Below, piece after piece: positions 29,944 to 52,071 of a DNA stretch of 64,000 nucleotides. Each line of letters begins with the position of its first letter. Positions within the stretch are counted from its first letter, which is position 1. The translations under genes and the position numbers were made by a program. The stretch spans positions 66,144-130,143 of the forward strand of contig JAPPGX010000191.1 in the NCBI GenBank assembly GCA_028877265.1. Direction: 5' to 3'. Under the pieces are notes generated by a model, which saw only the letters and a list, made by a program, of their open reading frames with translations, made no database searches and was not told where the DNA came from. This DNA is from Acidobacteriota bacterium. Its GTDB lineage: Bacteria > Acidobacteriota > Vicinamibacteria > Marinacidobacterales > Marinacidobacteraceae.

Positions 29944-30196
29944 TAAAAGTCACGAGATTCGCGTGGCCTGAACGGGAGTTCCAGAAGTTCCCGGAACGCC
30001 GCGTGGCGGGCGGTGTTCCATGGGGTGTTGACGGGCTTCGGATTTCGCTATCCGTCTACCTGGCTTCAGGAACGGAACCCGTCCCCCGGAATAAAACCGC
30101 TCGTTAGGGAAGACGCCCTTGTTCGGCGTCCCGAGTCCGGGAAAGCCTTGTCAGTTTCCAGCAGTTCTTCTGTTTCTCGAAGGGAGGAGGCGAACG

Positions 30197-35001: not shown

Positions 35002-36531
35002 GTGGGCTTGAGGAATCGCGTTCTCCTGGCGGCGATCCTTCTTGGCGGGGGATTTGTGTTTCCGGCGGCGGGCGGTTGCGCCCTGCGGTCGGGAGGTTCC
35101 CCCGACCTGGCGCAGGAGGCGGCCCCCGAACTGCCCTCCGACTTTGCCGAGAATCCAGCCAGCGGAGCCCGCCAGGCGCAGGAGTGGTGGCGGGCGTTCG
35201 CCGATCCCGCGCTCGACCACGTGGTCGAATCGGTACTGGACTCCAATTTCTCCGTGGCGGAAGCGGTAGCGCGGGTCGAGCAGGCCCGAACGCGGGCCCG
35301 GCTGGCCGACGCGGCGATCCTGCCCACGGTCGGAGCGAGCCTCACCGCGGAAACCTTCGACCTGCCCACGAACGCCGCGATCGGCGCCCAACTCGAGGAC
35401 CTCGGTCTCGATTTCCCGCTGCCCGACCGGCTGGGCTTCCCGACCTATACCCTGGGCGCGGACTTTGCCTACGAAGCGGATTTCTGGGGCCGCGTCCGGC
35501 ACACCGCACTCGCGGCGGGATCCGAACTGCTGGCCTCGGAGTTCGACCTGCGGGTCGCCCGCATCGGCATCCTCGCCGAGACGATCTCGGCCTACTTCGA
35601 AATCGGCCATCTCCGGCAACAACTCGCCATCGCTCGAGGGCACGTGGAACTGCTCGAGGAACGCGAGCGGCTGGTCGAGAGCCGCTACGAACGTGGGCTT
35701 GCCGTCTCGCTCGAACTGCACGGCGTGCGTCAGGCTCTCTCGAGCGCCCGGGCCGGCGTGCCGCAGGTCGAGAATCAACTCGCCGAGACCGAGTCGCGGC
35801 TCGCCGTGCTGCTGGGAGGCTACCGGGAGGATGTCGCGGCGATCCTTCCCGAATCCCTCTCCCCGGAATCTCCAGCCGAACCGGTGCCCGCAGGCATTCC
35901 GGCCGACCTCCTTTCGCAGCGCCCGGACGTGCAGGCCGCGGGTCACCGGCTGGAAGCCGCCGGACACACCGTCGAAGCCCGTCGGGCCGCGTTGATGCCG
36001 CAGCTTTCGCTCTCCGGATCCATTGGACTCCGGAGTACGGACGCCGGAGGCCTCTTCGACGTCAAGCAGTGGTTCACGAACCTCGCCGGCAACCTCCTTC
36101 GTCCGGTGTTCGACGGCGGCCGGCTCGCGAGCGGCGTGGAACTGGCCGAGGCCCGCTTCGACGAGTTGGCGGCGGCCTACGGCCGGACCATCGTTACCGC
36201 GGTCAACGAGGTGGAAGCGGCCCTGGCCACCCTCAGGAACGAAGGCCGGCGGCAGGAATCTCTCGCCGCGCAGCACGAGGAGGCCCGCGCCTCCGTCGAA
36301 GCTCAGTCCAGGCGCTATGAGGCGGGCATCAGCGGCTATGGCGATCTGCTCGATGCGAATGCCAGACTGCTGGATGCGGAATCGGCGCTCGCGGGTTCGG
36401 CGCGGAACCTGGCGCTCGCCCGCCTCGCCATCCACCGGGCTCTGGGGGGCGCCTGGACCGCCCCGGACGAGATGGCCAGCGCGCCGGCGAGCACGCCGGA
36501 TGCCCGCGCCAAAGGACCGGCCGACCGATGA
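35002..36531 (+). CDS. RND efflux system outer membrane factor lipoprotein (NodT/OprM family)
   Basis: Lipobox FPAAGGC. It has two tandem TolC-like repeats (SVAEAVARVEQARTRARLADAAILPTV..., coiled-coil segments, LALARLAIHRALGG). Confidence 0.85.
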   Translation: MGLRNRVLLAAILLGGGFVFPAAGGCALRSGGSPDLAQEAAPELPSDFAENPASGARQAQEWWRAFADPALDHVVESVLDSNFSVAEAVARVEQARTRARLADAAILPTVGASLTAETFDLPTNAAIGAQLEDLGLDFPLPDRLGFPTYTLGADFAYEADFWGRVRHTALAAGSELLASEFDLRVARIGILAETISAYFEIGHLRQQLAIARGHVELLEERERLVESRYERGLAVSLELHGVRQALSSARAGVPQVENQLAETESRLAVLLGGYREDVAAILPESLSPESPAEPVPAGIPADLLSQRPDVQAAGHRLEAAGHTVEARRAALMPQLSLSGSIGLRSTDAGGLFDVKQWFTNLAGNLLRPVFDGGRLASGVELAEARFDELAAAYGRTIVTAVNEVEAALATLRNEGRRQESLAAQHEEARASVEAQSRRYEAGISGYGDLLDANARLLDAESALAGSARNLALARLAIHRALGGAWTAPDEMASAPASTPDARAKGPADR

Positions 36532-37745
36532 ATCGAACGAAGGGATTCATCCTGGCGGCGATCATCCTGCTGGGATCGTTCGGGATCGCAACCCTGCTGA
36601 TCGCGCAGCGGCCGGAGCCCGAGCGGCGCGAACCTCCCTCCCGGATTCCGTTCGTCGTCACGGCGCCCGCGGTCGCGGGTTCGGGGCCGATCCCGGTCCA
36701 CGGCGCCGGGACGGTCCGGCCCCGCGTCCAGGTGGAGGTGGCCGCCGGGGTGAGTGGACGGGTCGTCCGGGTTGATCCGGGCTTCGAGAGCGGCGGCCGG
36801 GTCAGCGAGGGTCAGGCGCTCTTCCGCCTCGACGACGCCGACTACCGCTTCCGGGTGGAGCAGGCCCGTTCCGGCGTCGCCGTACAGCAGGTGGAACTGC
36901 TGAAGGTCGAGGAGGAAGCGCGGATCGCCCGCGAGCAGTACGAAGCGTTCCAGAGCCGCCGTGGCGCCGCCGGGGACGCGGAAGCGAGTCCCCTGGCGCA
37001 CTGGGAGCCGCAGCTCGAGGCGGCGCGGGCCGGTGTGGAACGGGCCCGCGCGCTCCTCGCGGAAGCCGAACTCCTGCTCGCGCGAACCGAAGTTCGGGCG
37101 CCCTTCGACGCCGTGGTGCGCTCCGAGAGCGTCGGGGTCGGACAGTTCGTGACCGCAGGGGTCGGCGTCGGCCGGATTTACGCCTCCGATGCGGTCGAGA
37201 TCGTCGTCCCGCTGTCCGACGCCGATGCGGCGCTCGTCCCGGGTCTGTGGGACCTGAGGCCGGGAGTCGCGGATCGTCGGGCGGCGGCCCGGGTCACCGC
37301 GGACTACGGGACCGGCGCCTATGCCTGGGACGGGTACGTGGACCGGGTCGAGGCCGCACTGGATGAAACGACGCGCACCCTCGATGTGATCGTGCGCGTT
37401 CCGAACCCCTTCACGGGTGGTTCCCGGGTGCAAGCGGGAGAAGCGAGCGCGGACGCCGGATCCGCGCCGCCGCTCCTGATCGGCCAGTTCGCGAACGTCG
37501 AGATATCGGGGATCGCGCCGGAGGAGTACTTCCGGATCCGGCGGCTGGGGCTCCGGCCGGGCAACGAGGTCTGGGCGGTGGACGGCGAGGCGGTGACCAT
37601 CGTTCCGGTCCGCGTGCTGCAGCGCTTCGACGACACCGTCTACGTCACCGGCGGGCTGCAGGAAGGCCAGGAGGTAGTCCTGAGTGGCATTCAGTTCGCG
37701 ACCGAGGGACTGAGGGTGCGGACCGCCGCGAACCCGGACCCTTGA
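36528..37745 (+). CDS. RND efflux periplasmic adaptor (membrane fusion protein, HlyD family)
   Basis: There is a 4-bp overlap with the OMF gene. It has an N-terminal TM anchor. The biotinyl/lipoyl-like hairpin is GVSGRVVRVDPGFESGGRVSEGQALFRLDDADYR. The coiled-coil is AVQQVELLKVEEEARIAREQYEAF. Confidence 0.85.
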   Translation: MNRTKGFILAAIILLGSFGIATLLIAQRPEPERREPPSRIPFVVTAPAVAGSGPIPVHGAGTVRPRVQVEVAAGVSGRVVRVDPGFESGGRVSEGQALFRLDDADYRFRVEQARSGVAVQQVELLKVEEEARIAREQYEAFQSRRGAAGDAEASPLAHWEPQLEAARAGVERARALLAEAELLLARTEVRAPFDAVVRSESVGVGQFVTAGVGVGRIYASDAVEIVVPLSDADAALVPGLWDLRPGVADRRAAARVTADYGTGAYAWDGYVDRVEAALDETTRTLDVIVRVPNPFTGGSRVQAGEASADAGSAPPLLIGQFANVEISGIAPEEYFRIRRLGLRPGNEVWAVDGEAVTIVPVRVLQRFDDTVYVTGGLQEGQEVVLSGIQFATEGLRVRTAANPDP

Positions 37746-37854
37746 ACCTGCGGGACGTTGTAAGGCCCGGAGCGCAGGTCGATCGCCCGCAGTCGGATCC
37801 GCCGGGGTGGGGCGGAGGAGGAAGGACCTTGGGCGAGAATGCCGGTCAGGACGC

Positions 37855-38850
37855 ATGAGTGAAGACGTGCTCTCCCCGTTCCCGGAGGGTTGGTATTTCG
37901 TTACCACCCGGGGATCACTGGAGAAGGCGAGGCTCATCCAGAAGACCTGGATGGGAAAGGACATCGTCGTCTGGTGCGACGACGCCGGCGGAATCTCCGT
38001 GGCCGAGTCGGTCTGTCCTCACCTGGGGTCCGAACTGGGCCCCGCCGCCGGCGGCCGAGTGCGGGATGGCCGTCTCGTGTGTCCTTTTCACGGCTACGAG
38101 TTCGACGTCAGCGGGCAATGCGTCGCCACGCCCTTCGCCCCGCCGCCGAAGACCGCGAGGCTGAGGTCGTTCGAGACTCGGGAGGTCCTGGGCATCGTCT
38201 TCGCCTGGTGGGGAATCGACGGACGGCCCCCGCAGTGGAGCCTTCCCGAGGACCCGCCGGCCGGCGCCGACTGGTGCGAACCGGCGTTCCGGACTCTCCG
38301 GTTTCGGGGGCACCCCCAGGAAACGAGCGAGAACGCCGTGGACATGGCGCACCTCCGGTACGTGCACGGCTACGGCAACGTCGGCCGGGTCGGCAAGGTA
38401 ACGGTGGACGGCGCGTATCTGCGGAGCTGCTTTGATTTCAAGCGCACCCAGCGCATCGCCGGAGCCATCAATCTCACCTTCGACGTCTCCGCCACCGCGC
38501 ATGTCGTCGGACTCGGATACTCGCTCGTGGAGTTCCACGAGCGCTCCATTGGAATGGACGGACGCCTCTGGGTCCTTGCGACGCCCGTCGACGGCACGCT
38601 CATCGACCTGGTGCTGGTCGGACAGTTGCGAAGAATCCGGAAACCGAAGCGGCTGATCGTCGGGTTGCGGTTCCTGCCGCCTGCTCTCCGTACCGGGACC
38701 ATGAACAAGCTGATGCTGTTCTTCCAAAGGCACGACGTCATGCAGGACGTGGAGATCTGGAGCCGGAAGCGGTACCGGTCGCGCCCGAGCCTCAGCCGGG
38801 CCGACGGCGAGATCGGGTTGTACCGGCGCTACTGCAGGCAGTTCTACTAG
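37855..38850 (+). CDS. Rieske [2Fe-2S] non-heme-iron oxygenase (KshA/SdmA/PAO-like ring- or sterol-hydroxylating oxygenase family)
   Basis: ATG at 37855. Rieske motif CPHLG...(19 aa)...CPFHGY. Mononuclear iron motif ENAVDMAHLRYVHG (D-x2-H-x4-H). It is about 330 aa. It is inserted between the MFP and RND pump genes. Confidence 0.8.
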   Translation: MSEDVLSPFPEGWYFVTTRGSLEKARLIQKTWMGKDIVVWCDDAGGISVAESVCPHLGSELGPAAGGRVRDGRLVCPFHGYEFDVSGQCVATPFAPPPKTARLRSFETREVLGIVFAWWGIDGRPPQWSLPEDPPAGADWCEPAFRTLRFRGHPQETSENAVDMAHLRYVHGYGNVGRVGKVTVDGAYLRSCFDFKRTQRIAGAINLTFDVSATAHVVGLGYSLVEFHERSIGMDGRLWVLATPVDGTLIDLVLVGQLRRIRKPKRLIVGLRFLPPALRTGTMNKLMLFFQRHDVMQDVEIWSRKRYRSRPSLSRADGEIGLYRRYCRQFY

Positions 38851-38872: not shown

Positions 38873-40252
38873 TCAGGCGCTCCGGAACCGCCAGCCGTAC
38901 ATCACCCGGCCGTAGAAGTTGAACCACTTTCTGGCCTCCGGGTCCTCGAACGGATAGTCCGCGCCGAGCTGTCTCGCCGTGACGAGGCCGGACACGAAAC
39001 AGGTCTCCTGGCTGTTGACCAGGGTGTGCGCGCCACAGTGCCAACTCCGCCGCTTTCCCTGGACGAAGCGAAACAACTGGGTCAGGAAGGCGACGTGAGG
39101 CACGTCGTGCACGATGTGCTGAAACCACCACCTCTTGACGATCCTGCTCTCGTCGATACGGCTGATCGGGTTGTAGGTCACGAGACACGGCTTGTCCGAC
39201 GTGTTCGCCCAGGGCTGCTGGTTGTGCATGATGTAGGTGATCTCGTAGTTGTCGGGCCGCGCGCCGTACTGCTCGATGTGGTTGCTCCGGGTGGCGAGCG
39301 GCCTGGCCTCGTTGTCGGGGAGGACCGAGGCGTCCGAATGCACGACCGTGTGGTTGTGCAGTTCGCTTTCGTACCGGATCGAGGAGAGGAGCCAACCCTC
39401 CAGCCGCGTCGGCCTGTCGAGGAGCATCAGCGTCTGGTTCGCGTTGCACGCGAAGACGACTTCGTCGAAGGTTTCGGTCCTTCCGTCCTCGTCCTCCACG
39501 ACAACCTCGTTACGGCGCCGGTGGACCCTTCGCACCGGCCGGTTCAGATAGATCTTCTCGCGAAAGGCTGCGGACAGATCCCGGTAGATCCGCCGGGTGC
39601 CCTGATCCCAGGTCTGCATCGGCGTCGCGGTCTCGATGTCGAAGAAGTCCAGGTACCGCGAAAAGAGCGACGCCGGCATGTCGAACACGTTCGTCGCCAT
39701 CAGGAAGTTGACGAACATGGGCTTCAGGACCTTGTACCGGAAGTCCCCCGAGTACCTTCCCAGGTTCAGCAGCGCTCCCATGCTGACGTAGTTGAACGGG
39801 TTAAGGGAGCTGAGCAGCTTCGACCTCGAGACGTTGAGCCGGCCGAACCACTTCAGACGTCTCAGGAGACGCTGGAACTTCTGGATTTCCGGTTGCAGTT
39901 GCCTCCTGATGTCGGAGTCGAAGTCGTGGGCATAGATTCCGCCTCGATACTTCACGCTGTAGTTGAACCGCGTTTCGAGCAGCTCGATGCCGTGCTGTTG
40001 CATGAGCAGGACGAAGTGGTGGTATGCCGACGGTATGCACGCGGTGACCGAGATATCGAACGGCACCGTGCTGCCGTCGTCCTGCGGCATGTCCGCAGTG
40101 ATCGCATTGCCGCCGAGCTGCGCCTGCGCTTCGAAGAGCCGAAAATCGAAACGGTCCCGGTGGCGGTTGAGCGCCCACGCCGTCCCGAGCCCCGAGGCGC
40201 CCCCACCGACAATGGCAACCCTTCTCGGCGCGCCGCCCTTCGCTTCACCCAC
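38873..40252 (-). CDS. FAD/NAD(P)-binding amine-oxidase-like oxidoreductase (COG2907-type)
   Basis: The Rossmann motif RRVAIVGGGASGLGTAWAL is followed by FEAQAQLGGNA. The C-terminal flavin-contact block WHCGAHTLVNSQETCFVSGLVTARQLG matches the W-x-C-G-A-x-T...QE...SG pattern of the family that classically pairs with CMAS-type methyltransferases. Confidence 0.75.
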   Translation of the reverse strand: MGEAKGGAPRRVAIVGGGASGLGTAWALNRHRDRFDFRLFEAQAQLGGNAITADMPQDDGSTVPFDISVTACIPSAYHHFVLLMQQHGIELLETRFNYSVKYRGGIYAHDFDSDIRRQLQPEIQKFQRLLRRLKWFGRLNVSRSKLLSSLNPFNYVSMGALLNLGRYSGDFRYKVLKPMFVNFLMATNVFDMPASLFSRYLDFFDIETATPMQTWDQGTRRIYRDLSAAFREKIYLNRPVRRVHRRRNEVVVEDEDGRTETFDEVVFACNANQTLMLLDRPTRLEGWLLSSIRYESELHNHTVVHSDASVLPDNEARPLATRSNHIEQYGARPDNYEITYIMHNQQPWANTSDKPCLVTYNPISRIDESRIVKRWWFQHIVHDVPHVAFLTQLFRFVQGKRRSWHCGAHTLVNSQETCFVSGLVTARQLGADYPFEDPEARKWFNFYGRVMYGWRFRSA

Positions 40253-40431
40253 ATTCCTACTCTACCTTTGGGGTGCGGCCGCCCCGTCCGCTCGCCGCCG
40301 CCGCAGTAGGCGGTCCGGGGACCCTGCCGACCCCTTGCCCGCCCGCTCCATCGACTAGACTCTGACCCGGACCATCCAGTGGCGGCGGATCGGTGGGGCT
40401 GTCGAGCCGCCTCGGCTGGAGGTTGAGCACC

Positions 40432-42450
40432 ATGAGCGAGGGCACCCGGTTTCCGATCCGAATCGCCGAGGAGTTGATCCTCCTCATGCTGGACGAGCAG
40501 AGCGGCTACCTCGAGATGGTTCCGAACTGGGACTTCTCCTGTGTCATGGCCGGGGCCGTGCTCGCCGACCTGGCCCTGGAGCGTCGCATCGAGACCGACC
40601 TGGAGCGGTTGTACCTGGTCGATCCCTCACCGACCGGAGATGAGTTGCTCGACCCGACGCTCAAGGACATCGCCGAATCCGACGAAAAATCGGACGCCCA
40701 GTTCTGGATCGAACGGAACACCCGCCAAGCCGACGAAATCGTCGCAGCCGCCCTCGAGCGCCTGGTGGAGCGGAACATCCTTACCCACGAGAGCGGCGGA
40801 TTCTGGGGGCTCTCGCGCTCTGTCGCCCGTTCAGGGACTTTTCCGACCCAGGCTGTCGCGACCCGCCGGGAATCCAAGGTGAGGGTCCTGAGCGTCATCC
40901 TGAACGACGAGATCCCGGACCCGCGGGACGCCATCCTGGTCGCGCTGATGCACACCTGCGGCGGCTTCAAGCTGCTGCTGGAGGAAGAGGACTACGAAGA
41001 GCGGCTCGCCCGCATCGAACTCGTCGCCAAGCTGGACCTCATCGGACGGACGGTCGCCGCCGCCGTGAAGGACAGCACGGCGAGGCCCAAGACCCGTCGC
41101 GTCGTTCAGACGAAGCCCATTCCCAAGCCTGGGTATCTCGTACTGCTACAGCGCGACTTCCTCTCCGGCAACATCTCGAAGGCGATGTACGGCATGTATC
41201 GAAAACACGGGCCGGTCGTCAGGATGCCCTTCAAGATCCGCGGCAAGCCCGTCGTTTCGTTGATGGGTGCCGATGTCAATCACTGGGTCAATCGGCACGG
41301 ACGGTTCTATCTCCGCTCGAAGGACTACATCGAAGGGCTGGAGCACGCGTTTGGCGCATCCCGGAGTCTCCCCGGAATGGATGGCGCCGAACACTATCGA
41401 ATGCGCAGGGAACTCCAGACTGCGTATTCCCGCGCCACGCTCGCGCAGCGGCTGCCGGAGCTGATCGACGACTGCCGGAAATCGCTGAGCCGTTGGAAGG
41501 AAGGGGATGTCTTCCGCGCCACCGAGAGCTTTCAGAACCACATCAGCAGTCAGATCTCCAATTTCGCGATGGGAGTGGATTGCAGCCACTATGTCGACGA
41601 ACTGTTGGCCTTTGAACACCGTGCACTGATAACGCGGGTCCAGGGCGCATTGCCGGATTTCATGCTGTCCACCCCAAGAATGAAACGGTATGGGAAGCGT
41701 GTCAGGGAACTCCAGGAGGCGATCACCGCGGGACACACGACGGCGCTGCGCAAGGGAAAGCCCCGGGATCTGGCCGACGCGATTCTCGATCTCCACAAGA
41801 GGGACCCGCAGTTCCTTCCCGAAACGGACCTCACCTTTCCCTTCGTGGCTTCCATGGTTGCGAGCATCTATCTCGGCAGCGGACTGGCCTTCACTGTTTA
41901 CAACATGGTTCGAAACCCGGACGTGTACGCGAGGGTCCGGAGCGAGGCCGAGTCGCTGTTCGGCAACGGTCGTGAACTTGCGGGAGATGACTTCAATCAC
42001 CAGAGCATCGACGTCACGGTGCGTCTCTGCATGGAATCCTCGCGTATGTACCCGGTGATTCCATGGCAGTTGAGAACGGTCATGAACGAGTGCATCGTCA
42101 GTGGTTACGAGATACCGCCGAAGACGATGTTGCTGATTTGCCAGACTGCGCCGCACTATGCCGAGGATCTGTACCGGGATCCGTTGAAGTTCGATATCGA
42201 TCGGTACTTGCCGGACCGGGCCGAGCATCTGCAACCGGGCGCCTATGCGCCCTACGGCCTGGGTACGCACATGTGCCTCGGCCACCGGTGGGTGGAACTT
42301 CAGATGGCCGTCAACGTCCTGCTCATCGCGCATCACCTGCAGCTCGAAGTGGTGCCCGGCAACTACAAGATGGGAATCAATCCGTTCCCGACCTTGGCCC
42401 CCAACAGGAAGCTGAAGTTCCGCGTCGCCGGGGTCCCGCGTCCCGTGTGA
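40432..42450 (+). CDS. Fusion protein: N-terminal GPP34/GOLPH3-like lipid-binding domain (about 220 aa) plus C-terminal cytochrome P450
   Basis: ATG at 40432 is preceded by GGAGG (the track's 40393 start is GTG). GPP34 blocks: IAEELILLMLDEQSGYL, SCVMAGAVLADLAL, LLDPTLKDIAESDEKSDAQFWIERN, DPRDAILVALMHTCGGFKLL. P450 blocks: ExxR ESSRMYP, PERF-like FDIDRY, heme loop YGLGTHMCLG. The I-helix region (YLGSGLAFTV) lacks the usual acid-alcohol pair. Confidence 0.8.
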   Translation: MSEGTRFPIRIAEELILLMLDEQSGYLEMVPNWDFSCVMAGAVLADLALERRIETDLERLYLVDPSPTGDELLDPTLKDIAESDEKSDAQFWIERNTRQADEIVAAALERLVERNILTHESGGFWGLSRSVARSGTFPTQAVATRRESKVRVLSVILNDEIPDPRDAILVALMHTCGGFKLLLEEEDYEERLARIELVAKLDLIGRTVAAAVKDSTARPKTRRVVQTKPIPKPGYLVLLQRDFLSGNISKAMYGMYRKHGPVVRMPFKIRGKPVVSLMGADVNHWVNRHGRFYLRSKDYIEGLEHAFGASRSLPGMDGAEHYRMRRELQTAYSRATLAQRLPELIDDCRKSLSRWKEGDVFRATESFQNHISSQISNFAMGVDCSHYVDELLAFEHRALITRVQGALPDFMLSTPRMKRYGKRVRELQEAITAGHTTALRKGKPRDLADAILDLHKRDPQFLPETDLTFPFVASMVASIYLGSGLAFTVYNMVRNPDVYARVRSEAESLFGNGRELAGDDFNHQSIDVTVRLCMESSRMYPVIPWQLRTVMNECIVSGYEIPPKTMLLICQTAPHYAEDLYRDPLKFDIDRYLPDRAEHLQPGAYAPYGLGTHMCLGHRWVELQMAVNVLLIAHHLQLEVVPGNYKMGINPFPTLAPNRKLKFRVAGVPRPV

Positions 42451-42517: not shown

Positions 42518-45500
42518 ATGAGTTCCGATCCAGGCAACCACGCGGAACCCCGTGGACCGATCGCCTACATGGCGAGCAACGGCGTGGCGTCCAACTTGCT
42601 GATGTTCGGCATCCTCGCGGTGGGCCTCGTGTCGCTGACCGGCCTCGAGCAGCAAGCGTGGCCCACGGTGCCTTTCAACCAGTTCGAGATCTCGGTGCCG
42701 TTCCCGGGCGCAACGCCCCAAGAGGTGGAGGAGGCCATCGTCGTCAAGATCGAGGATGAGGTCAGGGGATTGGCGGAGGTGAAGACGGTCCGGTCCGTAG
42801 CGGCCCCGGGAATGGCGTCCGTCAGGGTCGAAGTCAACTCCGGTACGGACATGGGCGCGAAGAGGGACGAAATCGAGTCGGCGGTCGCGCGGATTCAGAC
42901 CTTCCCGGGTGGGGCCGAGCGGCCCCAGATCCGTGAAATGACGAACGCCCAGAGCATGATGCGTCTCGTCCTCTACGGCGACGTTCCAGAGCGCTCGCTG
43001 AAGGAGCTCGCCCACCGGATCGAAGACGATCTCGCGTCGCTCCCGAACGTGTCCCTGGTCGAGACCAGCGGGGTGCGCAACTACGAGATCTCGATCGAAG
43101 TGCCGCTCGAGCGGCTGCGGGCCCTTGGGCTCACGCTGACCGACATCGCCAACACGGTTCGCCGCGGTTCCCTGGACCTGTCGGCGGGCAGCATCGATAC
43201 CGCGCAATCCCGGGTGCGGATTCGGACCCTCGGCCAGAGCTACGACCAGCAGGACTTCGAGGACATCGTCGTCCTCGGCCGCGCCGACGGCACGGTGGTG
43301 CGCCTGGGTGAGATTGCCGAGGTGCGCGACGGCTTCCACGACTCAGGTTTGCTGGTGCGGTACCAGGGCGAGCCAGCCGTGTTCGTCGAGGTTTCGCGAG
43401 CCGATGGCGAGAGGGTGATGGACGTGGCGCGCGCCGTTCGGGAACACGTCGCGAACGAGATAGCGCCCTCGCTCCCGGACGGCATGGGCATCGACATCTG
43501 GAACGACGACTCTTCGGTCTTCTCGGAACGTGCCCTCCTTCTCCTCAAGAATGGAGCCTTGGGGCTGTTGCTGGTCCTGATCGCGCTGGGTCTGTTTCTC
43601 CAGCTTCGGCTGGCGTTCTGGGTCGCCGTCGGCCTCGGCGTTTCCGCGATCGGCGCCCTGGCCGCCATGATGGTGTTCGACATCCCGCTCCACGAGATTT
43701 CGCTCTTCGCCTTCGTGCTCGCCATCGGCATCGTCGTGGACGATGCGATCGTCGTGTCGGAGCACATCCACGAGGAACGAAAGCGCGGCACGCCGGGACT
43801 CGCGGCGGCGATCCGGGGCGCGCGACGCATCAAGGTGCCGCTGGTCTTCGCGGTGCTGACGACCATCGTGGCGTTCCTTCCGCTGCTCTTCATACCCGCG
43901 GGGTTCGGAGAGGTGTGGAAGGCACTGCCGATCGTCGCTATTGCCACGCTGCTCTTTTCGCTGGTCGAATCGCTCCTGGTGCTGCCCAATCATCTGTCCC
44001 ATCATCTGCACGGCCCGGATTGGGCGCCCCGGACGGGCATGGAGCGGTTCGTCGCCCGGATCCAGAATCGGGTCGATTCCTGGTTGAACCGCTTCATCCA
44101 GGGACCCGTGGACCGCGGGATCCAGTTGGCGACGGACTGGCCCGGGGTGACGGTTTCGGCGGCCGTTGCGCTGCTCGTCCTGAGCATTTCCCTTCTTCCG
44201 GCCGGCATCGTTCCCACCACCTTCGCGACGAAGGTCGAAGGCGACTTCGCGATCGCCACCCTTGAGATGCCGGAAGGAACGACCGCGCCGCAAACGTACG
44301 CCGTGGCGCAACACCTGGAATCGGCCGGCCGCCGGGCCGTCGAGCGGCTCTCCCAAAGCCGGCCCGCTGACGCGCCTCCCCTCTTGTCCGGAGTTACGGT
44401 CGTCGTCGGCCAGCGGTCGCGGCTCGAAACCGGAGGCCTCAATCCCTCGCCCACTTTGAACCCGGAAGCCAATGTCGCGACCATCGAGTTCAAGCTCCTG
44501 AGCGCCCAGCTGCGGAGCATCACTTCGGGAGACGTCGTGCAGGCATGGCGCGAGGAGGTGGGTGTCCTGCCTCAGGTACGCGCGGTCACCTTCATCAGCG
44601 AGATCTACACATTGGGCAACCCCGTCGAGGCGGCGCTGTCCCACCCGGATCCGGAACGCCTCAACGAGATCGCGAATTCCACCGTCGCCGGCCTCGGCAG
44701 GGTCGGAGGCGTCTTCGACATACGCTCGGATCACACTCCCGGGATCCCGGAAGTCCAGGTGGGACTACTTCCCGAAGCGCGCACCCTGGGCCTCACGCTG
44801 GATGATCTTGCCCGGCAGACGCGAGCGGCCTTCTTCGGTGAGGAGGCCGTGCGGGTGCAGCGGGGACGTGACGAAGTTCGGGTCTACGTCCGGTTACCCG
44901 AGGAGCAACGGAACGCGATCACCGACGTCGAGAGTTACCGGCTCCGGACGCCAACTGGCGCCGACGTGCCGGTCAGCCGCGTGGCTTCGCTGAGTTCGGG
45001 CACCTCGCCGCCGGCCATCCGGCGCCAGGACGGCCAGCGGATTGTGACCGTTACCGCGGATGTCGATCCGAGTGTGACTTCCGCCGCGACCGCCAACGAC
45101 ATTCTGGAGAACACCATCCTGGCGGGGCTCATCGCGGAGAACCCGGAACTGACCTATACCTTCGGAGGGGAACAGCAACAACAGCTCGACTCCCTGGGCG
45201 GTCTCTATCGCGGATTCGTGATCGCGCTGCTCCTGATCTTCGCGCTGCTGGCCATTCCCCTGCGCTCCTACACGAAACCGTTCATTGTCATGGCCATCAT
45301 CCCGTTCGGGTTCGTCGGGGTGATCCTGGGTCACTGGATGCTGGGGGTCGCCGTGAGCGCGGAGTCCTTCGTCGGGATCTTCGGGTTGGCCGGCGTGGTC
45401 GTCAACGACTCCCTGGTGATGATCGATTTCACCGACCAGAAGCTCCGGGACGGCATCCCGGTGCGAACCGCGATCATCGAGGGCGCGAAGGGACGCTTCC

Positions 45501-45721
45501 GCCCGATCATGCTGACTTCCCTGACGACCTTCCTGGGTTTCACCCCCCTGATTCTCGAGGACGCGATTCAGGCGCAGTTCTTTGTTCCCTTCTCCGCCTC
45601 GATCGGTTGCGGCATTCTCTTCACCACGGTGATCATCATGTTTCTGGTGCCCGCGCTTTCCTCGATCCACCTGCGCCTTGGCTCGGCCCGGCAACAACTG
45701 GCCGCCGAGGGTTCCGGTTGA
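42518..45721 (+). CDS. RND efflux transporter permease (AcrB/HAE1-like, 12 TM, about 1067 aa)
   Basis: It has an N-terminal TM followed by the large periplasmic loop (PFPGATPQEVEEAIVVKIEDEVRGLAEVKTVRS). Conserved TM4-like block: AFVLAIGIVVDDAIVVSEHI. Its second half is a repeat of the first. Confidence 0.9.
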   Translation: MSSDPGNHAEPRGPIAYMASNGVASNLLMFGILAVGLVSLTGLEQQAWPTVPFNQFEISVPFPGATPQEVEEAIVVKIEDEVRGLAEVKTVRSVAAPGMASVRVEVNSGTDMGAKRDEIESAVARIQTFPGGAERPQIREMTNAQSMMRLVLYGDVPERSLKELAHRIEDDLASLPNVSLVETSGVRNYEISIEVPLERLRALGLTLTDIANTVRRGSLDLSAGSIDTAQSRVRIRTLGQSYDQQDFEDIVVLGRADGTVVRLGEIAEVRDGFHDSGLLVRYQGEPAVFVEVSRADGERVMDVARAVREHVANEIAPSLPDGMGIDIWNDDSSVFSERALLLLKNGALGLLLVLIALGLFLQLRLAFWVAVGLGVSAIGALAAMMVFDIPLHEISLFAFVLAIGIVVDDAIVVSEHIHEERKRGTPGLAAAIRGARRIKVPLVFAVLTTIVAFLPLLFIPAGFGEVWKALPIVAIATLLFSLVESLLVLPNHLSHHLHGPDWAPRTGMERFVARIQNRVDSWLNRFIQGPVDRGIQLATDWPGVTVSAAVALLVLSISLLPAGIVPTTFATKVEGDFAIATLEMPEGTTAPQTYAVAQHLESAGRRAVERLSQSRPADAPPLLSGVTVVVGQRSRLETGGLNPSPTLNPEANVATIEFKLLSAQLRSITSGDVVQAWREEVGVLPQVRAVTFISEIYTLGNPVEAALSHPDPERLNEIANSTVAGLGRVGGVFDIRSDHTPGIPEVQVGLLPEARTLGLTLDDLARQTRAAFFGEEAVRVQRGRDEVRVYVRLPEEQRNAITDVESYRLRTPTGADVPVSRVASLSSGTSPPAIRRQDGQRIVTVTADVDPSVTSAATANDILENTILAGLIAENPELTYTFGGEQQQQLDSLGGLYRGFVIALLLIFALLAIPLRSYTKPFIVMAIIPFGFVGVILGHWMLGVAVSAESFVGIFGLAGVVVNDSLVMIDFTDQKLRDGIPVRTAIIEGAKGRFRPIMLTSLTTFLGFTPLILEDAIQAQFFVPFSASIGCGILFTTVIIMFLVPALSSIHLRLGSARQQLAAEGSG

Positions 45722-45758: not shown

Positions 45759-46814
45759 CTAGCCCGAAAGGGGCCGGCGCGCCACGAAACAGTAGAGCGG
45801 GGTGAAGATCCCCGTCTTGCCCCCCGCGACGTAAGCGTCCGCGGTCCGGTCCAGGAGAGCCACCACCTCCGCCGAGCCCCTCGGGAACGCACCGAAGAAC
45901 TCGGCCAGCCGGACTCCCCACCGCAGCGCCTTGCGGCCCATCGGAATCCGGCGGAACGCGCTGCCGGGCAACCCGCGGAGGGTTTCCATGGGCTGATACC
46001 ACGGCGTGTCCTGACGGTGCCCGTCGGCGGCGAGGTCCTCACCCTCCAGGACTTCGAATCCTGCGGTTGCGAGCGCCCGGTTGACCTCCCCGAACGTCGC
46101 AATGTCCTTGAGCGCGATGCCGTGCATGAGCTCCTGCTTGATGGCGCGGTGCCGGTCGTCCCCCGGGTCGTACAGGTCCGTCATGCACATTTCCTGGCCC
46201 CAGAAGAGGGCTCCAGGTTTCAGCACTCGGTAGATCTCGGCGAACGCGCCCGCCTTGTCGTCCGCGTGGCAGGTTGATTCGATCGCGTAGCCGCGGTCGA
46301 AGGTCCGGTCCGCGATCGCGCTCATGTCCATGAAGCTGCACTGGAGACAGTCGGTCTGGCCGGCGAGCCCCGCGGCCTCGTTCAAGCGCCTTGCGTTGTT
46401 GCACTGGACTTCGCTGGCGTTGATTCCGACAACGCGGACTCCAACCTCCCTCGCCACGCGGCGCATCGGACCGCCGATCCCGCATCCGACATCCACGACG
46501 GTCATGCCCGGACGCAGTTCGAGCCTGGACATCATGAGTCTCTGGTGCCGGATCTTGGAGTCCTCCAGGCTTTCGCCGGGCGACAGCGGCGCAAAGTGCA
46601 GGGACTCTCCCCAACCCATGACCATGAACTCGGTGCAAAGGTCGTAGTACTCCTTGACGGTCCGCGTGTGGTCGTACCCCCCGTCGGCATCCCCCCGGGG
46701 GGATGCCCTGTCGGTCCATCCTTCGAAGTCCCGCACGCGGTTCGTGACGTTTGATCCGCCGAACGCAGTTCTCAACCCATCGGATAGCCCACGGATTTGT
46801 CCGGTGAACTTCAC
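45759..46814 (-). CDS. Sterol 24-C-methyltransferase (Erg6/SMT) homolog, SAM-dependent
   Basis: GTG start at 46814. It shows block-by-block similarity to yeast Erg6 as recalled from memory. [21 protein letters not shown] matches [37 protein letters not shown] matches [25 protein letters not shown] matches [21 protein letters not shown] matches [28 protein letters not shown] matches [27 protein letters not shown] matches [32 protein letters not shown] matches LVAGGKSKLFTPMMLFVARKP. Confidence 0.8.
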   Translation of the reverse strand: [351 protein letters not shown]

Positions 46815-47144
46815 GGCGTGTTCTGGCCCGGTTCCGGCTCTCGCAGGCCACCCGGACGTGCGAAACCGGTTCTTCGCACCGGGGGCCGTTGAAGACGGGG
46901 CCCCGCGGGTCGCGGTTCCGCCAGCGGTCGCGGGGACGCACGGCGGATAGCCGCCACGTCAGCCGGCACCCGGACTTCCCTCCCCCCCAAGACAGTGGAT
47001 AGTCTAGTGGAGGCGTTGCGGACCCCGGGAGCACGCCGAAGGAGATGGACGGATGCGCAGGAAACGCCAACTCTCGCTGTTTCCGGCCGTATCCGGGGTG
47101 CTCTCTGGACGCCCGGACCACCGCCGCGAAGGAGCCGCTGCCGG

Positions 47145-48851
47145 TTGGTGACGTTTCGCTATCTCCTTGTTGCGGGCCTCCTCGGGTTCGCCGGTTGTGC
47201 GCCGGGGCCGGCGGAAACCCGTTTCGAGGTTTCCTTCCCGGCGGAGCTTCACGAAGGACCGATCACCGGCAGGGCCTACGTGGTCATCGGGACCGAGCCG
47301 GACATCGCGGCGATCCGGCAGCGGAGCCTCGGTCACCAGCCGGTGTCCGCCGCGCGCGGCGTCCCGTTCTTCGCGGTGGACGTCGAGGGGCTGGCGTCCG
47401 GCCAACCCGCGGTGATCGACGGTTCCACCCTGGGATACCCGGTTGAGCGCCTCGCCGAACTCCCCGCCGGGGACTACTACGTGCAGGCGCTCCTCGTCCC
47501 GTACACCGAGTTTCACCGCGCCGACGGGCACGTGATCTGGGCCCACCGGGACGAGTGGGAAGGGCAGCACTTCAACTGGGCCCCCGGCACCCTGCTCAGC
47601 GACGCGGAGAGAGTCCGGCTCGATCCGGCGAGCGGCTTCTCCTTCCGCCTGCGCCTCGTCGAGGAACTTCCCGAGATCGAGGTGCCGCCCGACGACATGT
47701 GGGTGCGGCGGGTGAAATTCGAGAGCCCGATGCTCAGCGAGTTCTGGGGCCAACCGGTCTATCTCGGAGCCACCGTGCTGCTTCCGGAGGGATACGACTC
47801 GCATCCGGACACCTGGTACCCAACGGTGTATCAGCAGGGCCATTTCAGCCTCGACCCGCCGTTCGGGTTTTCGGCGGACCCGGTGGAGGAATCGGCAGCC
47901 GCCCGCGCCGCAAGGCTCGAACGCGGGGTCGAGAACGGTTTCGAGTTCTTCGAGTCCTGGCGGTCTCCAGGCTTCCCGCGGATGGTCGCGGTCACCTTCC
48001 AGCACCCGACCCCTTATTTCGACGACTCCTACGCGGTGAATTCGGCCAACAACGGCCCCTACCAGGACGCCCTCATGACCGAGTTGATCCCTTACCTCGA
48101 GGAGCGGTTCCGGATGATCCCGGAGGGGTGGGCGCGCCTGCTCACCGGCGGATCCACCGGCGGATACGAAGCGCTCGCCCTCCAGGCGCACCGGCCGACC
48201 GACTTCGGGGGCGCCTGGGTCTTCTATCCGGATCCCATCGACTTCCGGCGGTTCTTCCTGATCAACATCTACGAGGACGAGAACGCGTTTCGCGCGCCCG
48301 GCTGGAGTGACGGGCAACTCGCTCCCGAGCGCTACGCGTTCCGCGACGATGACGGCCAGCCGCTGCAGAGCATCCGCGAGCTGAGTCGACTGGCGTCCGT
48401 CCTCGGCAGCCGCGGGAGGTCGACCGACTATCTGGAAGCTTGGGAAGCGTCCTTCGGGCCCGTCGGCGAGGACGGCTACCCCCGTCCTCTCTGGGACAAG
48501 CGGACCGGTGTCATCGACCGCGAGGTGGCGCGCTACTGGCGGGAGAACGGCTACGACCTCCGCCACTACCTCGAGACGAACTGGGGAGAGATCGGCCCCG
48601 ACCTGGTGGGCAAACTCCACTTCATCTGCGGGGACATGGACAACTACTACTTCAACCACCCGGTCTATCTCATCGAGGAATTCCTGGAGGCCACCGAGAG
48701 CCCCCACTACGGCGGTTCGTTCCGCTACGGGCGGCCCAACAAGGGACACGGCTGGACGCCGATCACGAACGCGGAGCTGTTCCGGGAAATGGCGGCGCAC
48801 CTGACGCGGAACGCGCCGCCGGGCGCCGACACCCGCGGGTGGAAGTACTGA
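47145..48851 (+). CDS. Putative esterase-family alpha/beta hydrolase lipoprotein (enterochelin-esterase/esterase-D-like)
   Basis: TTG/GTG start at 47145-47148 is preceded by GGAG. Lipobox LLGFAGCA. The serine-hydrolase nucleophile elbow LLTGGSTGGYEAL lies within an alpha/beta region. It has an N-terminal beta-sandwich region. Confidence 0.55.
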   Translation: MVTFRYLLVAGLLGFAGCAPGPAETRFEVSFPAELHEGPITGRAYVVIGTEPDIAAIRQRSLGHQPVSAARGVPFFAVDVEGLASGQPAVIDGSTLGYPVERLAELPAGDYYVQALLVPYTEFHRADGHVIWAHRDEWEGQHFNWAPGTLLSDAERVRLDPASGFSFRLRLVEELPEIEVPPDDMWVRRVKFESPMLSEFWGQPVYLGATVLLPEGYDSHPDTWYPTVYQQGHFSLDPPFGFSADPVEESAAARAARLERGVENGFEFFESWRSPGFPRMVAVTFQHPTPYFDDSYAVNSANNGPYQDALMTELIPYLEERFRMIPEGWARLLTGGSTGGYEALALQAHRPTDFGGAWVFYPDPIDFRRFFLINIYEDENAFRAPGWSDGQLAPERYAFRDDDGQPLQSIRELSRLASVLGSRGRSTDYLEAWEASFGPVGEDGYPRPLWDKRTGVIDREVARYWRENGYDLRHYLETNWGEIGPDLVGKLHFICGDMDNYYFNHPVYLIEEFLEATESPHYGGSFRYGRPNKGHGWTPITNAELFREMAAHLTRNAPPGADTRGWKY

Positions 48852-48911
48852 CCGGCGGTCGTCCGCCGTTCGGGCTGAGACTGCGGCTCCCCGGAGCGTC
48901 GGTTCCAGAGC

Positions 48912-50171
48912 ATGCGTGAGGCCGGACCGGACCGGGCCTTCCGGCGGTTGCGGCTGCTCCTGGCGGCGCTCCTCTTCGTCGGCTACGCGGGCTACTACCT
49001 CGGCCGGGTCACGGTTCCGGTGGCGCTGCCCCTCATCGGCGAAGCCTTCGGTTACTCGAACACCGAGGTCGGCCTGATCCTCTCCGTGTATTTCGCGGTG
49101 TACGCCGCCTCGAAACTCGTGAACGGTTTCCTGGGCGACCGGATCGGCGGCAAGGCGATGTTCTTCATCGGACTGTTCGGGTCCGTCCTGATGAATGCGG
49201 CCTTCGGTTTCGGCCGGGAGCTCTTCCTTTTCGTCGCGATCTGGGGGGTCAACGCCTATTTCCAGACGATGGGCTGGCTCGCCGTCATGCCGATCATGGC
49301 CCGCTGGTACCCGAGCCGCGAGAGCGGCCGCGTGATGGGCTTCATGTCGATCAGCTATCAACTCGGCGACTTCCTCGCCCGGGCCTCGGCCGCGGTGCTG
49401 ATCGTGGCGCTCGGATGGTCGGGACTCTTCTGGGCGCACGCCGTCCTGCTCGCCCTGTTCGGCCTGGCGCTCTTCCGTCTCATCAGACCCGAGCCGCCGT
49501 CGGCAACCTATCCGGCCGGGCTGCGGGAGGCGCAGCCGGAGCCGGCGGCTCCGGGAGCCGAACGGAGCCGATCGCGCCACCGGATGCTCACGAGTCCGGC
49601 CTTCTGGATCCTGTGCACGAGCTACGTCCTCCTTTCCGTCGTCCGTTACAGCTTCTGGGGCTGGTCCGTGGACTATCTGGTCCAGGCCGGTGCCGGGATC
49701 GGCGCGGCGGCCGCGACGTCCGCCCTCTTCCCGCTGCTCGGCTCGGCCGGATCGATCACCGCGGGGTGGGTCTCGGACCGGCTGGGTGCTCGCCGGGGGC
49801 CGGTGCTCGCCGTCATGTGCGCGGTGCTGACCCTTTCCATCTACGTCTTCAGCCGCCTGCCGGTCGCGGAGGGGCCCTGGCTCGCGGCCGCCCTTGGGCT
49901 CGTGGGCTTCACGCTCTACGGCCCGTATTCGCTGATGTCGGGGGCCATGGTCATGGACTTCGGGGGGACGGAGGCCTCGGCCTCCGCTTCGGGCATCGTG
50001 GACGGGATCGGGGCGGCCGGGGCCGTCTTCGCGGGAGTCGGGATGGGGTACCTGATCGATGCCTATGGCTGGGACGGCGCGTTTGGCATCATCGTGGCGA
50101 TGGCTTCGGTCGCGACCGTCCTGAACGCTCTGCTCTGGAGCCATAGGCCGCTGCGCGCGGAGCGCGGCTGA
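48912..50171 (+). CDS. MFS transporter (organophosphate:phosphate / oxalate:formate antiporter-like)
   Basis: 12 predicted TM helices. The MFS motif is GFLGDRIGGK and the loop motif is MARWYPSRESGRVMG. It has two 6-TM halves. Confidence 0.75.
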   Translation: MREAGPDRAFRRLRLLLAALLFVGYAGYYLGRVTVPVALPLIGEAFGYSNTEVGLILSVYFAVYAASKLVNGFLGDRIGGKAMFFIGLFGSVLMNAAFGFGRELFLFVAIWGVNAYFQTMGWLAVMPIMARWYPSRESGRVMGFMSISYQLGDFLARASAAVLIVALGWSGLFWAHAVLLALFGLALFRLIRPEPPSATYPAGLREAQPEPAAPGAERSRSRHRMLTSPAFWILCTSYVLLSVVRYSFWGWSVDYLVQAGAGIGAAAATSALFPLLGSAGSITAGWVSDRLGARRGPVLAVMCAVLTLSIYVFSRLPVAEGPWLAAALGLVGFTLYGPYSLMSGAMVMDFGGTEASASASGIVDGIGAAGAVFAGVGMGYLIDAYGWDGAFGIIVAMASVATVLNALLWSHRPLRAERG

Positions 50172-50186
50172 TCCGGGGGAACGAAC

Positions 50187-51200
50187 ATGCAGGCATCACG
50201 CTGGCTGAATGCGGTGGACACCCACACCGAGGGAGAGCCCACCCGGATCATCACCGGCGGGGTCGGCCATCTGGCCGGCGACTCGGTTTCCGCGAAGCGG
50301 GACTCCTTCCGGCGCCACCTCGACCATCTGCGCACCGCGCTCGTCGCGGAGCCCCGCGGACACAAGGACATGTTCGGATGCGTGCTGACCGAGCCGGCGG
50401 GTCCGGACGCCGAGTTCGGCATGTTCTTCATGGACAACGGCGGCTACCAGGACATGTGCGGTCACGCGACCATCGGGGTTTCGACGGCGCTCGTCGAACT
50501 GGGGATGGCTCCCGGTGAGGGCCCGCGCCGCCGCATCCGGTTCGAGACCCCGGCCGGACCCGTCGAGTCCGTGGTGGCGGTCGAAGACGGGCGGGCCGTC
50601 TCGGTCACATTCCGCGGCGTCCCCTCGTTCGTGGCGCACCTGAACGCCTCCCTGCCGGCGCCCGGGTTCGGCGATCTGAAGGTCGACGTCGCCTACGGTG
50701 GCAACTGGTTCGTCTTCGTGGACGCCGGCGAGCTGGGACTCGAGGTTTCACTCCGGAACATCCGCGAGGTCGTGGATCTGGGGATGCGGGCGCGGGAAGC
50801 CGCGAACCGGATCCTGCCGGTCCGCCATCCGGAAATCCCCGGGAGCGACCACATCAACATCGCCACCGTGCTGGCGCGCCCGGAGAACCCCGCGGCGACC
50901 TATCGGAACGTGCACGTCTTCGGGCCGCGTCAGTTCGACCGCTCCCCCGGCGGCACCGGCAACTGCGCCCGCCTGGCGGTGCTGCATCGGAAAGGAGAGC
51001 TGGGCCCGAAGCGCTCGGTACGCATCGAGAGCGTGACCGGCGGGACGTTCGTGGCGCGGATGCTTGGGGAGACCCGGGTTGGGGACCGGCAGGCCGTCGT
51101 GCCGGAAATCACGGGCTCCGCGCACGTCACCGGGTTCCACCAGTTCCCGCTGGATCCCCGCGACCGCCTGGGTCACGGGTTCTCGACGGAATCGGTGTAA
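50187..51200 (+). CDS. Proline racemase family protein (4-hydroxyproline epimerase / 3-hydroxyproline dehydratase-like)
   Basis: Family blocks present: VDTHTEGEPTRII, GGYQDMCGHATIG (first catalytic Cys) and DRSPGGTGNCARLA (second catalytic position atypical). Confidence 0.8.
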   Translation: MQASRWLNAVDTHTEGEPTRIITGGVGHLAGDSVSAKRDSFRRHLDHLRTALVAEPRGHKDMFGCVLTEPAGPDAEFGMFFMDNGGYQDMCGHATIGVSTALVELGMAPGEGPRRRIRFETPAGPVESVVAVEDGRAVSVTFRGVPSFVAHLNASLPAPGFGDLKVDVAYGGNWFVFVDAGELGLEVSLRNIREVVDLGMRAREAANRILPVRHPEIPGSDHINIATVLARPENPAATYRNVHVFGPRQFDRSPGGTGNCARLAVLHRKGELGPKRSVRIESVTGGTFVARMLGETRVGDRQAVVPEITGSAHVTGFHQFPLDPRDRLGHGFSTESV

Positions 51201-52011: not shown

Positions 52012-52071
52012 CCCCCGCCACGGTAGCGCAGCGCCCGACGGATTCACCGAGCAGCCCCGTCCGCGCGCCGG

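Follow-up and report, generated by a model that had tools for sequence, protein, structure and literature searches.

What is a GPP34 domain, of the kind found in the Golgi protein GOLPH3, doing at the N-terminus of a bacterial cytochrome P450? The question is raised by a gene at positions 40432..42450 (+ strand) of a 64,000-nucleotide stretch of DNA from an Acidobacteriota bacterium (contig JAPPGX010000191.1, positions 66,144 to 130,143). This whole stretch is referred to here as the window, and all coordinates below are window positions unless another locus is named. We hold with moderate confidence that the gene product is a cytoplasmic P450 that tailors a sterol or another isoprenoid lipid, and that it does so within a mobile module for tailoring and export. 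The most informative evidence comes from the conserved neighborhood of the gene, which encodes a sterol methyltransferase (SMT)-family enzyme, a Rieske oxygenase, a flavoenzyme, and an RND efflux pump, and which an earlier reading made from the sequence alone (the sequence-only reading) had overlooked.

The fusion had been regarded in that reading as an unusual architecture; it has already been published under the name GPP34_L (Microbiome 2025;13:4, PMC11706023). The combination of GPP34 and P450 accounted for 656 of 663 “long” GPP34 proteins, which were found only in sponge-symbiont genomes, across many phyla, and the GPP34 family was expressed in situ in 45 of 107 metagenome-assembled genomes (MAGs) from A. 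aerophoba. The authors proposed that GPP34_L proteins are secreted effectors that bind phosphatidylinositol 4-phosphate (PI4P) and block phagosome maturation, leaving the role of the P450 unknown (PMC11706023). The window protein is a member of this group, with the same architecture, size (~670 amino acids), and distribution. It is 94-98% identical to proteins from Acidobacteria/Vicinamibacteria MAGs whose isolate names derive from sponge studies; its closest relatives include one coral MAG, while relatives linked to an SMT gene were found in metagenomes of Aplysina, Petrosia, and Sarcotragus. The published study does not contain the word “sterol” and does not treat the binding residues, the I-helix, or the SMT and RND neighbors, and a search for literature on GPP34 together with sterols, or on the module, returned nothing beyond it. 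What is new here is the linkage to an SMT and efflux module, a Tyr-containing I-helix specific to one subfamily, and evidence against PI4P binding, none of which we found in the searchable literature.

The first step in answering the question is to establish that the gene is what it appears to be. On the + strand, an uninterrupted frame runs from a GTG at 40393 or an ATG at 40432 to the stop at 42450. A Shine-Dalgarno-like GGAGG, read from the sequence at 40418..40422 (+), lies 9 nucleotides 5′ of this ATG, and because 46 homologs from other genomes begin at the equivalent Met, we place the start at 40432, as the sequence-only reading had done, giving a product of 672 amino acids plus the stop. 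Pfam assigns PF05719 (GPP34) to residues 11-213 (40462..41070, +; E=1.1e-33, 117.5 bits against a cut-off of 29.1, profile positions 1-199 of 201) and PF00067 (P450) to residues 230-651 (41119..42384, +; E=9.4e-36, 124 bits against a cut-off of 22.8, profile positions 7-447 of 462), bearing out both of the domain assignments that had been made by eye. Between them lies a basic linker with a Pro-rich hinge at its end, RPKTRRVVQTKPIPKPG, occupying residues 214-229 (41071..41118, +, in translation; within KDSTARPKTRRVVQTKPIPKPG). Directly after it, inside the P450 domain, stands P231, which is invariant in an alignment of 47 family sequences that includes members as low as 26% identity. Both Pfam domains were found in more than 120 homolog clusters (at 90% identity), which were 69-94% identical to the query and ~671-704 amino acids long (most 671-675), and the fusion gene is encoded in 49 species-level genomes. 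An assembly or sequencing artifact is therefore excluded, and a frameshift between two adjoining genes is ruled out by the unbroken frame and the full-length homologs, so that the fusion is a true one, as had been claimed. A full-length AlphaFold2 (AF2) model built from the 47-sequence alignment reached a mean predicted local distance difference test score (pLDDT) of 90.2 and a predicted template modeling score of 0.86; the latter is compatible with a compact two-domain arrangement, and pLDDT falls to 71 in the linker block.

The second half of the protein has the hallmarks of the P450 fold. In the 47-sequence alignment, E535 and R538 of the K-helix ExxR motif (E535-S-S-R538; 42034..42045, +) are invariant, and the PERF-like motif F587-D588..R591 (F587DIDR591) is invariant or nearly so. 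The same holds for G609, G611, H613, and the heme-thiolate ligand C615 (codon at 42274..42276, +) in the loop YGLGTHMCLG. The motif that departs from the canon is in the I-helix, which in the AF2 prediction spans residues 468-494 without a break. In place of the expected (A/G)Gx(D/E)T, the window protein has A477-S-I-Y480-L481-G482 (41860..41877, +), and a HMMER alignment to CYP46A1 pairs AGHETS with exactly this stretch. The family alignment pairs the D-T of AGxDT, present in most relatives, with Y480-L481 plus a one-residue deletion, while an alignment to CYP170A1 is shifted by one residue and pairs E-T with I479-Y480. In either register, neither an acidic residue nor a Thr/Ser pair is found, so that the absence of the acid-alcohol pair noted from the sequence does not result from a misplaced Thr. 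Both Y480 and G482 are invariant across 46 sequences of the clade to which the window protein belongs.

The loss of the acid-alcohol pair is not, however, a trait of the fusion family as a whole. Most members of the wider family, which comprises ~60 full-length clusters at 50% identity and 338 matches below 1e-30, carry a standard AGxDT or AGxET, a few carry AGxHT like CYP51, and Tyr occupies the acid position in only 5 of 41 aligned family representatives (50%-identity clusters). Among fusions encoded beside the SMT clade of the module, by contrast, 40 of 41 have the Tyr-type motif A-[S/A/G]-x-Y-[L/V/M/T], usually followed by Gly, including many that are only 41-46% identical to the window protein. 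On the basis of this difference, the missing pair is a derived signature of the SMT-linked subfamily. Fusions with the standard AGxDT, sampled in three genomes of one clade (L053-L055; P0274, P0302, P0320), have neighbors of other kinds, namely genes for an acyltransferase_3, an EryCIII-like glycosyltransferase, a sulfotransferase together with an Inositol_P-family (CysQ-like) protein, and a PhyH protein. These contexts suggest hydroxylation followed by conjugation, and they are compatible with a family of metabolic hydroxylases that act in lipid tailoring. Sulfated and glycosylated sterols are known from sponges.

In the window, the fusion gene lies in what we propose to be a module of seven genes. 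The first of these, at 35002..36531 (+), encodes an OEP/NodT outer-membrane efflux channel (Pfam OEP, E=3e-44; NCBIfam outer_NodT, 284.6 bits against a cut-off of 210). Its stop overlaps by 4 nucleotides (36528-36531) with the start of the gene for the RND periplasmic adaptor (MFP; 36528..37745, +; Pfam HlyD_3; NCBIfam RND_mfp, 152 bits against a cut-off of 94.9), suggesting translational coupling. The third gene (37807..38850, +) encodes a Rieske [2Fe-2S] nonheme-iron oxygenase with a KshA-type C-terminal domain (Pfam Rieske and KshA_C), whose translation shows CPHLG...CPFHG and DMAHLRYVH; its start codon is uncertain, as the ortholog at one other locus (L001) measures 331 amino acids. On the opposite strand, at 38873..40252 (-), follows a FAD-dependent oxidoreductase of the amine-oxidase/LkcE/fatty-acid-isomerase type (Pfam Amino_oxidase and NAD_binding_8). 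The fusion comes next, and 67 nucleotides 3′ of it, on the same strand, lies the gene for an RND inner-membrane efflux permease of the AcrB family (42518..45721, +; Pfam ACR_tran, E=4.7e-153), which NCBIfam places in the RND_permease multidrug subfamily and not with HpnN. The last gene, at 45759..46814 (-), encodes the ERG6/SMT-like methyltransferase, which uses S-adenosylmethionine (SAM). Its sequence places it in the SMT family by the SAM-methyltransferase core (CMAS and Methyltransf_11), the Sterol_MT_C domain (59 bits against a cut-off of 21.7), and a substrate-region motif of the GWGxSxHFA type (MGWGESLHFAP). The order is thus OEP, MFP, Rieske, flavoenzyme (-), fusion, RND, SMT (-), an unusual arrangement in which the enzyme genes separate the MFP gene of the pump from its RND gene. 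A promoter and terminator scan of 34.8-47 kb gave matches at chance level only and no information on transcription units.

This neighborhood recurs well beyond the window. To count it, the window proteins were compared by tblastn with the flanks of 49 species loci, and neighbors within 10 kb of the fusion were scored in those 38 loci whose flanks extended to 12 kb or more. The pump genes were the most constant, with MFP at 35 and RND at 32 of the 38 loci, and OEP at 20; the Rieske gene was found at 26, the SMT gene at 25, and the flavoenzyme gene at 12. At least one of RND, SMT, and Rieske was present at 35 of the 38 loci and at least two at 31. The families of the module accompany the fusion, in shuffled order, in Vicinamibacteria, Bryobacterales/Terriglobia, Gammaproteobacteria, Rhodothermales, and one alphaproteobacterial MAG. 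Clustering of open reading frames (ORFs) revealed no further large neighbor family conserved across phyla, in an analysis that covered ORFs of at least 110 amino acids and was noisy owing to antisense ORFs in high-G+C DNA.

The association also holds when it is approached from the methyltransferase. A search of JGI and GenBank metagenome contigs with a profile of the module's SMT yielded 80 loci, and all those with a source that could be checked came from sponge metagenomes (LXNJ, Petrosia; LXNI, Sarcotragus; Ga0209021 and JGIcombinedJ30088, Aplysina). Among the SMT-centered loci of at least 12 kb, a GPP34-P450 gene was present in 25 of 44, often abutting the SMT gene, and a Rieske gene in 17 of 44.

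Several features suggest that the module has passed between phyla. Cross-phylum identities are 55-70% for the fusion, 58-68% for RND, 60-66% for SMT, and 82-83% for the flavoenzyme, the last in comparison with copies in Bryobacterales and in the alphaproteobacterial MAG. The G+C content of the region from 28 to 48 kb, which includes the whole module, is 0.63-0.66, compared with 0.68-0.74 elsewhere in the window, which fits horizontal acquisition. Together with a report that sterol gene clusters (“CSGs”) are enriched and horizontally transferred in the microbiomes of Ircinia sponges (PMC9531527), the high identities and the dip in G+C content are the reason why we suggest transfer between phyla.

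What such a module might act upon is suggested by the nearest characterized relatives of its enzymes, which, as far as sequence comparison can tell, act on steroids or other lipids. For the P450, the best solved relatives by sequence were CYP46A1 (cholesterol 24-hydroxylase, E=1e-20), CYP170A1, and M. capsulatus CYP51 (E=5e-18), with human CYP51, CYP24A1, and CYP90B1 as further near characterized P450s. The nearest characterized P450s are thus enzymes that act on sterols (CYP46A1, CYP51), and not CYP125, CYP142, or CYP74, which the sequence-only reading had named for comparison along with CYP51; no specific affinity to these three or to CYP152 was found, and the window P450 fits none of the CYP families compared. 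The best solved relative of the Rieske protein was KshA, a 3-ketosteroid 9alpha-hydroxylase (E=2.4e-24). The flavoenzyme was closest to LkcE (E=6e-27, full length) and to 2b9w (E=4e-6), the P. acnes fatty-acid isomerase.

Two more specific identities were considered for these enzymes and discarded. The P450 is not a CYP51 ortholog: identity is 17-19%, the I-helix has Y-L in place of H-T, and neither an oxidosqualene cyclase (OSC) nor an ERG24 gene lies nearby. Against CYP46A1 and CYP51 together, with the CYP51-ferredoxin fusion of M. capsulatus included, identity is 17-21%, far under the 40% convention for a CYP family, and the AGHET of CYP46A1 and the AGQHT(S) of CYP51 are both absent; genuine CYP51 genes of sponge symbionts, which are ~31% identical to yeast ERG11, occur in separate OSC-CYP51-ERG24-SdmAB clusters. 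Likewise, the Rieske gene is not SdmA, scoring 37 bits against an equivalog cut-off of 600.

The module thereby differs from the clusters for de novo sterol synthesis described from sponge symbionts (PMC10070321, PMC9531527). The two share an SMT-family methyltransferase, a Rieske oxygenase, a niche, and signs of horizontal transfer. The de novo clusters, however, hold OSC, a true CYP51, ERG24, SdmA/B, and SMT, whereas the module lacks OSC, CYP51, ERG24, and SdmB, has a Rieske protein that is not the SdmA equivalog, and adds the GPP34-P450, the LkcE-like flavoenzyme, and a tripartite RND pump. SMTs of sponge symbionts have been shown to methylate sterol side chains in vitro, adding one to three carbons at C-24 (Brown et al. 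2023, PMC10070321).

From these elements, a working model can be assembled. The fusion would be a cytoplasmic heme-thiolate P450, with its GPP34 domain in the N-terminal position that the membrane anchor takes in eukaryotic P450s, and would belong to a seven-gene module (SMT, Rieske, flavoenzyme, fusion, RND, MFP, and OEP) shared horizontally among symbionts of sponges and also corals. The enzymes of the module may share one hydrophobic substrate, for which a sterol side chain or a comparable isoprenoid terminus is the most plausible candidate; the bacterium would either synthesize it with genes located elsewhere in its genome or acquire it from the host. The P450 would tailor this substrate oxidatively, installing or further converting the functional group on which the SMT depends or which it generates, and the pump would carry substrate or product through the envelope. 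With Tyr in place of the acid and Leu in place of Thr, the I-helix would alter proton delivery or oxygen activation, leading for example to desaturation, substrate-assisted oxidation, or another nonstandard outcome. The GPP34 domain would probably pack against the basic P450 domain and may serve as a docking or adaptor domain towards a membrane surface, a partner enzyme, or the pump.

A number of observations weigh against this model. The sterol substrate is deduced from family resemblance and genomic context, and since the window P450 is only 14-22% identical to any solved P450 structure, its ranking among such distant families is weak evidence. Enzymes of the SMT family are also able to methylate linear triterpenes, as the triterpene methyltransferases of Botryococcus do. 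No core sterol gene (OSC, CYP51, C-14 reductase/ERG24, SdmA/SdmB) is present in the 64-kb window. When a cyclase fragment from one locus (L002, described below) was used as a query, a cyclase was found near the fusion only at L002 and L003, and the flanks held no other core sterol gene. Both the P450 and the Rieske oxygenase require electrons, yet no ferredoxin or reductase was conserved in the module among ORFs of at least 110 amino acids. A beta-hairpin predicted at residues 117-127, whose tip carries the invariant residues F124 and W125, would make shallow membrane insertion by the GPP34 domain possible. An RND pump beside a P450 could equally mean that xenobiotics are handled. Finally, the 80 SMT relatives that we found did not include any of the contigs from which Brown et al. 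had tested SMTs.

We put forward a more specific form of the model only tentatively, namely that the Tyr-type fusion, SMT, Rieske oxygenase, flavoenzyme, and RND pump constitute a mobile module that, in sponges, remodels the side chains of sterols and exports the products. As no cyclase is linked to the module, the sterols remodeled in this way may be derived from the host.

The strongest alternative, although we consider it unlikely, is that the enzymes modify toxic metabolites of the host or of other microbes, such as sponge terpenoids or alkaloids, which the RND pump then expels, and that sterols are not involved. The most constant neighbors of the fusion are indeed RND/MFP/OEP pumps of the multidrug subfamily, no core sterol-synthesis gene lies nearby, the likeness of the P450 to sterol P450s is remote, and LkcE, the best solved relative of the flavoenzyme, belongs to natural-product biosynthesis. 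This account does not, however, readily accommodate a methyltransferase with both Sterol_MT_C and the substrate-region motif of SMTs, or a Rieske oxygenase whose closest solved relative is a steroid hydroxylase. In addition, the tight co-inheritance of four enzyme families and one pump across phyla suggests a dedicated pathway more than a general means of detoxification.

A different alternative concerns the chemistry. Instead of acting as a monooxygenase, the P450 could rearrange or dehydrate an oxygenated lipid, or use peroxide, and so dispense with a redox partner, like CYP74, CYP8A, CYP5A, or CYP152-like enzymes. An invariant Tyr in place of the acid-alcohol pair and the lack of a conserved ferredoxin or reductase in the module would both be expected of such an enzyme, and the Rieske oxygenase of the cluster could supply the oxygenated intermediate. 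We nevertheless regard this as improbable. The P450 shows no specific likeness to CYP74, CYP8, CYP5, or CYP152: the sole match among models of non-redox P450s was a partial one to the CYP152 CypC model (E=0.0058, 15 bits against a cut-off of 600), and the top PDB matches included no P450 of the CYP74 or CYP152 type. It is common for redox partners to be encoded at another locus, small ferredoxin genes fell below the size covered by the ORF clustering, and several true monooxygenases, such as EryF and P450cin, likewise lack the I-helix Thr or acid. Such chemistry would in any case be compatible with lipid tailoring in a module of the proposed kind, as one of its possible mechanisms. P450 BM3, CYP116B, and CYP51-ferredoxin likewise join a P450 to a second functional domain in a single polypeptide, but their partner is a C-terminal redox domain, whereas that of the window protein is N-terminal and without a cofactor; no conserved Cys/His cluster was found in the GPP34 domain in the 47-sequence alignment, and for these reasons it cannot supply electrons.

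This returns us to the GPP34 domain itself. By profile comparison, it is a genuine homolog of GOLPH3 and Vps74: the single fusion sequence matches human GOLPH3 (3kn1) at E=3.9e-5, and a profile of the clade matches 3kn1 at E=3.6e-11 and Vps74 (2zii) at E=1.8e-8, over ~200 residues. A beta-hairpin is predicted at the place equivalent to that in GOLPH3/Vps74. An AF2 model of the domain alone, from the single sequence, was unusable (pLDDT 37.7), so that the assignment of a GOLPH3 fold draws on the profile matches and the full-length model.

Homology of the fold does not extend to the residues that matter for phosphoinositide binding. W81, R90, R171, and R174, which form the PI4P pocket of human GOLPH3 (numbering confirmed by an alignment to 9qpq), align to V30, A40, D101, and V104 of the window protein, and all four are thus replaced. 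Across the 47 family members, position 40 is Ala in 40, position 101 is Asp or Glu in 32, and position 104 retains Arg in 20, mostly AGxDT members, with V, L, or I in 15. The domain is also strongly acidic, with an isoelectric point (pI) of 4.56 and a net charge of -15.8 (family median -12.7), in contrast to the P450 domain (pI 9.23, net charge +11.2, family median +9.0). For residues 52-298 of GOLPH3, the computed pI is about 7.8. As judged from the charge of the whole domain, which is not a map of its surface, a basic membrane-facing side was not found. The idea that the N-terminal domain binds phosphoinositide, or anchors the enzyme by way of a lipid as the sequence-only reading suggested, thus fails at the level of residues, which indicate that the domain is not a PI4P-binding module here.

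A role as a docking adaptor on the basic P450, or on a basic partner, appears more likely in our analysis than binding of anionic lipids. GOLPH3 itself works as an adaptor by recognizing basic enzyme tails close to the membrane (PMC8421267), and in the window protein a basic linker connects the domain to an enzyme that is basic as well, although the Golgi, COPI, and PI4P context of GOLPH3/Vps74 has no counterpart in bacteria. In microsomal P450s, too, the membrane anchor is succeeded by a basic linker and a Pro-rich hinge. No N-terminal signal peptide was found in the fusion; its residues 9-27 make up the first helix of the GPP34 domain and align with GOLPH3.

It is therefore very unlikely that these proteins are secreted effectors that bind host PI4P on phagosomes and block phagolysosome maturation, as proposed in PMC11706023 without regard to binding residues or sterols: although the confinement of the family to sponge or coral symbionts of many phyla, its expression in situ, the true homology to GOLPH3, and, more speculatively, a P450 freed from the bacterial redox chain by the missing acid-alcohol pair would suit such a role, the contact residues and the acidity of the domain, the missing signal peptide, the position of the gene in a cluster of efflux-pump genes and cytoplasmic SAM-, FAD-, and Fe-S-dependent enzymes, and the acyl-, sulfo-, and glycosyltransferase genes beside the canonical fusions all argue against it.

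The residue-level result challenges the only published functional hypothesis for these proteins and turns attention to lipid metabolism. The origin of sponge sterols with alkylated side chains (24-isopropyl, 26-methyl) is disputed, and the oldest biomarkers claimed for animals are founded on these compounds. An enzyme set built on an SMT, linked to a pump, and spread across the phyla of symbionts would offer a concrete bacterial candidate for their production that can be tested. Its hallmark would be the P450, which both the published survey and all the relatives that we recovered confine to symbionts of sponges and corals. If the module does act on sterols, the unusual alkylated sterols that are used as “sponge biomarkers” would owe something directly to symbionts from several phyla. 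If the adaptor role holds, bacterial GPP34 would be an enzyme-docking module, possibly ancestral to the retention of enzymes by GOLPH3, with PI4P binding added later. The invariant I-helix Tyr, next to sister subfamilies with AGxDT and AGxHT, also offers a natural series for the study of proton delivery in P450s.

Variations on the fusion and its neighborhood were seen in several relatives. Two Tyr-type GPP34-P450 paralogs lie side by side or within a few kb of each other at L014, L058, L121/L126, and L019, whereas the window has a single copy. Those at L014 (10001-12019 and 13621-15639) are 82% and 74% identical to the window protein and have a flavoenzyme gene between them; the second copy at L019 (918-2886) is 44% identical. 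Other architectures among the relatives (P0126, P0173, P0265) include GPP34-GPP34-P450 (872 amino acids), a tandem GPP34-GPP34 protein (444 amino acids), and a related P450 fused to two cyclic-nucleotide-binding domains (711 amino acids). Directly 3′ of the fusion in the alphaproteobacterial MAG (L002:12065-13249 and L003:5038-6183) lies a fragment of 163-173 amino acids with squalene/oxidosqualene-cyclase C-terminal repeats, beside an RND fragment of 199-213 amino acids. These appear to be remnants of cyclase and pump genes, a hint of an earlier link between the module and a triterpenoid cyclase.

The remainder of the window contains several other genes of note. The SMT gene is followed at 46995-51200 by genes for an esterase-domain protein (618 amino acids), an MFS transporter, and a proline racemase; as these are conserved only within Vicinamibacteria, they probably lie outside the mobile module. 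Eukaryote-like domains, of a kind reported to be enriched in sponge symbionts, occur in a Spondin_N-domain protein (51223-52047, -) and in a protein of 1072 amino acids with Sortilin/Vps10 and BNR repeats (9573-12791, +). At 3214-8862 (-), two adjacent ABC-2/DUF3526 membrane proteins are encoded beside a TonB-dependent receptor with a CarboxypepD_reg domain, and a second large receptor-like protein, with OMP_b-brl_4, is encoded at 30119-33067, just 5′ of the module.

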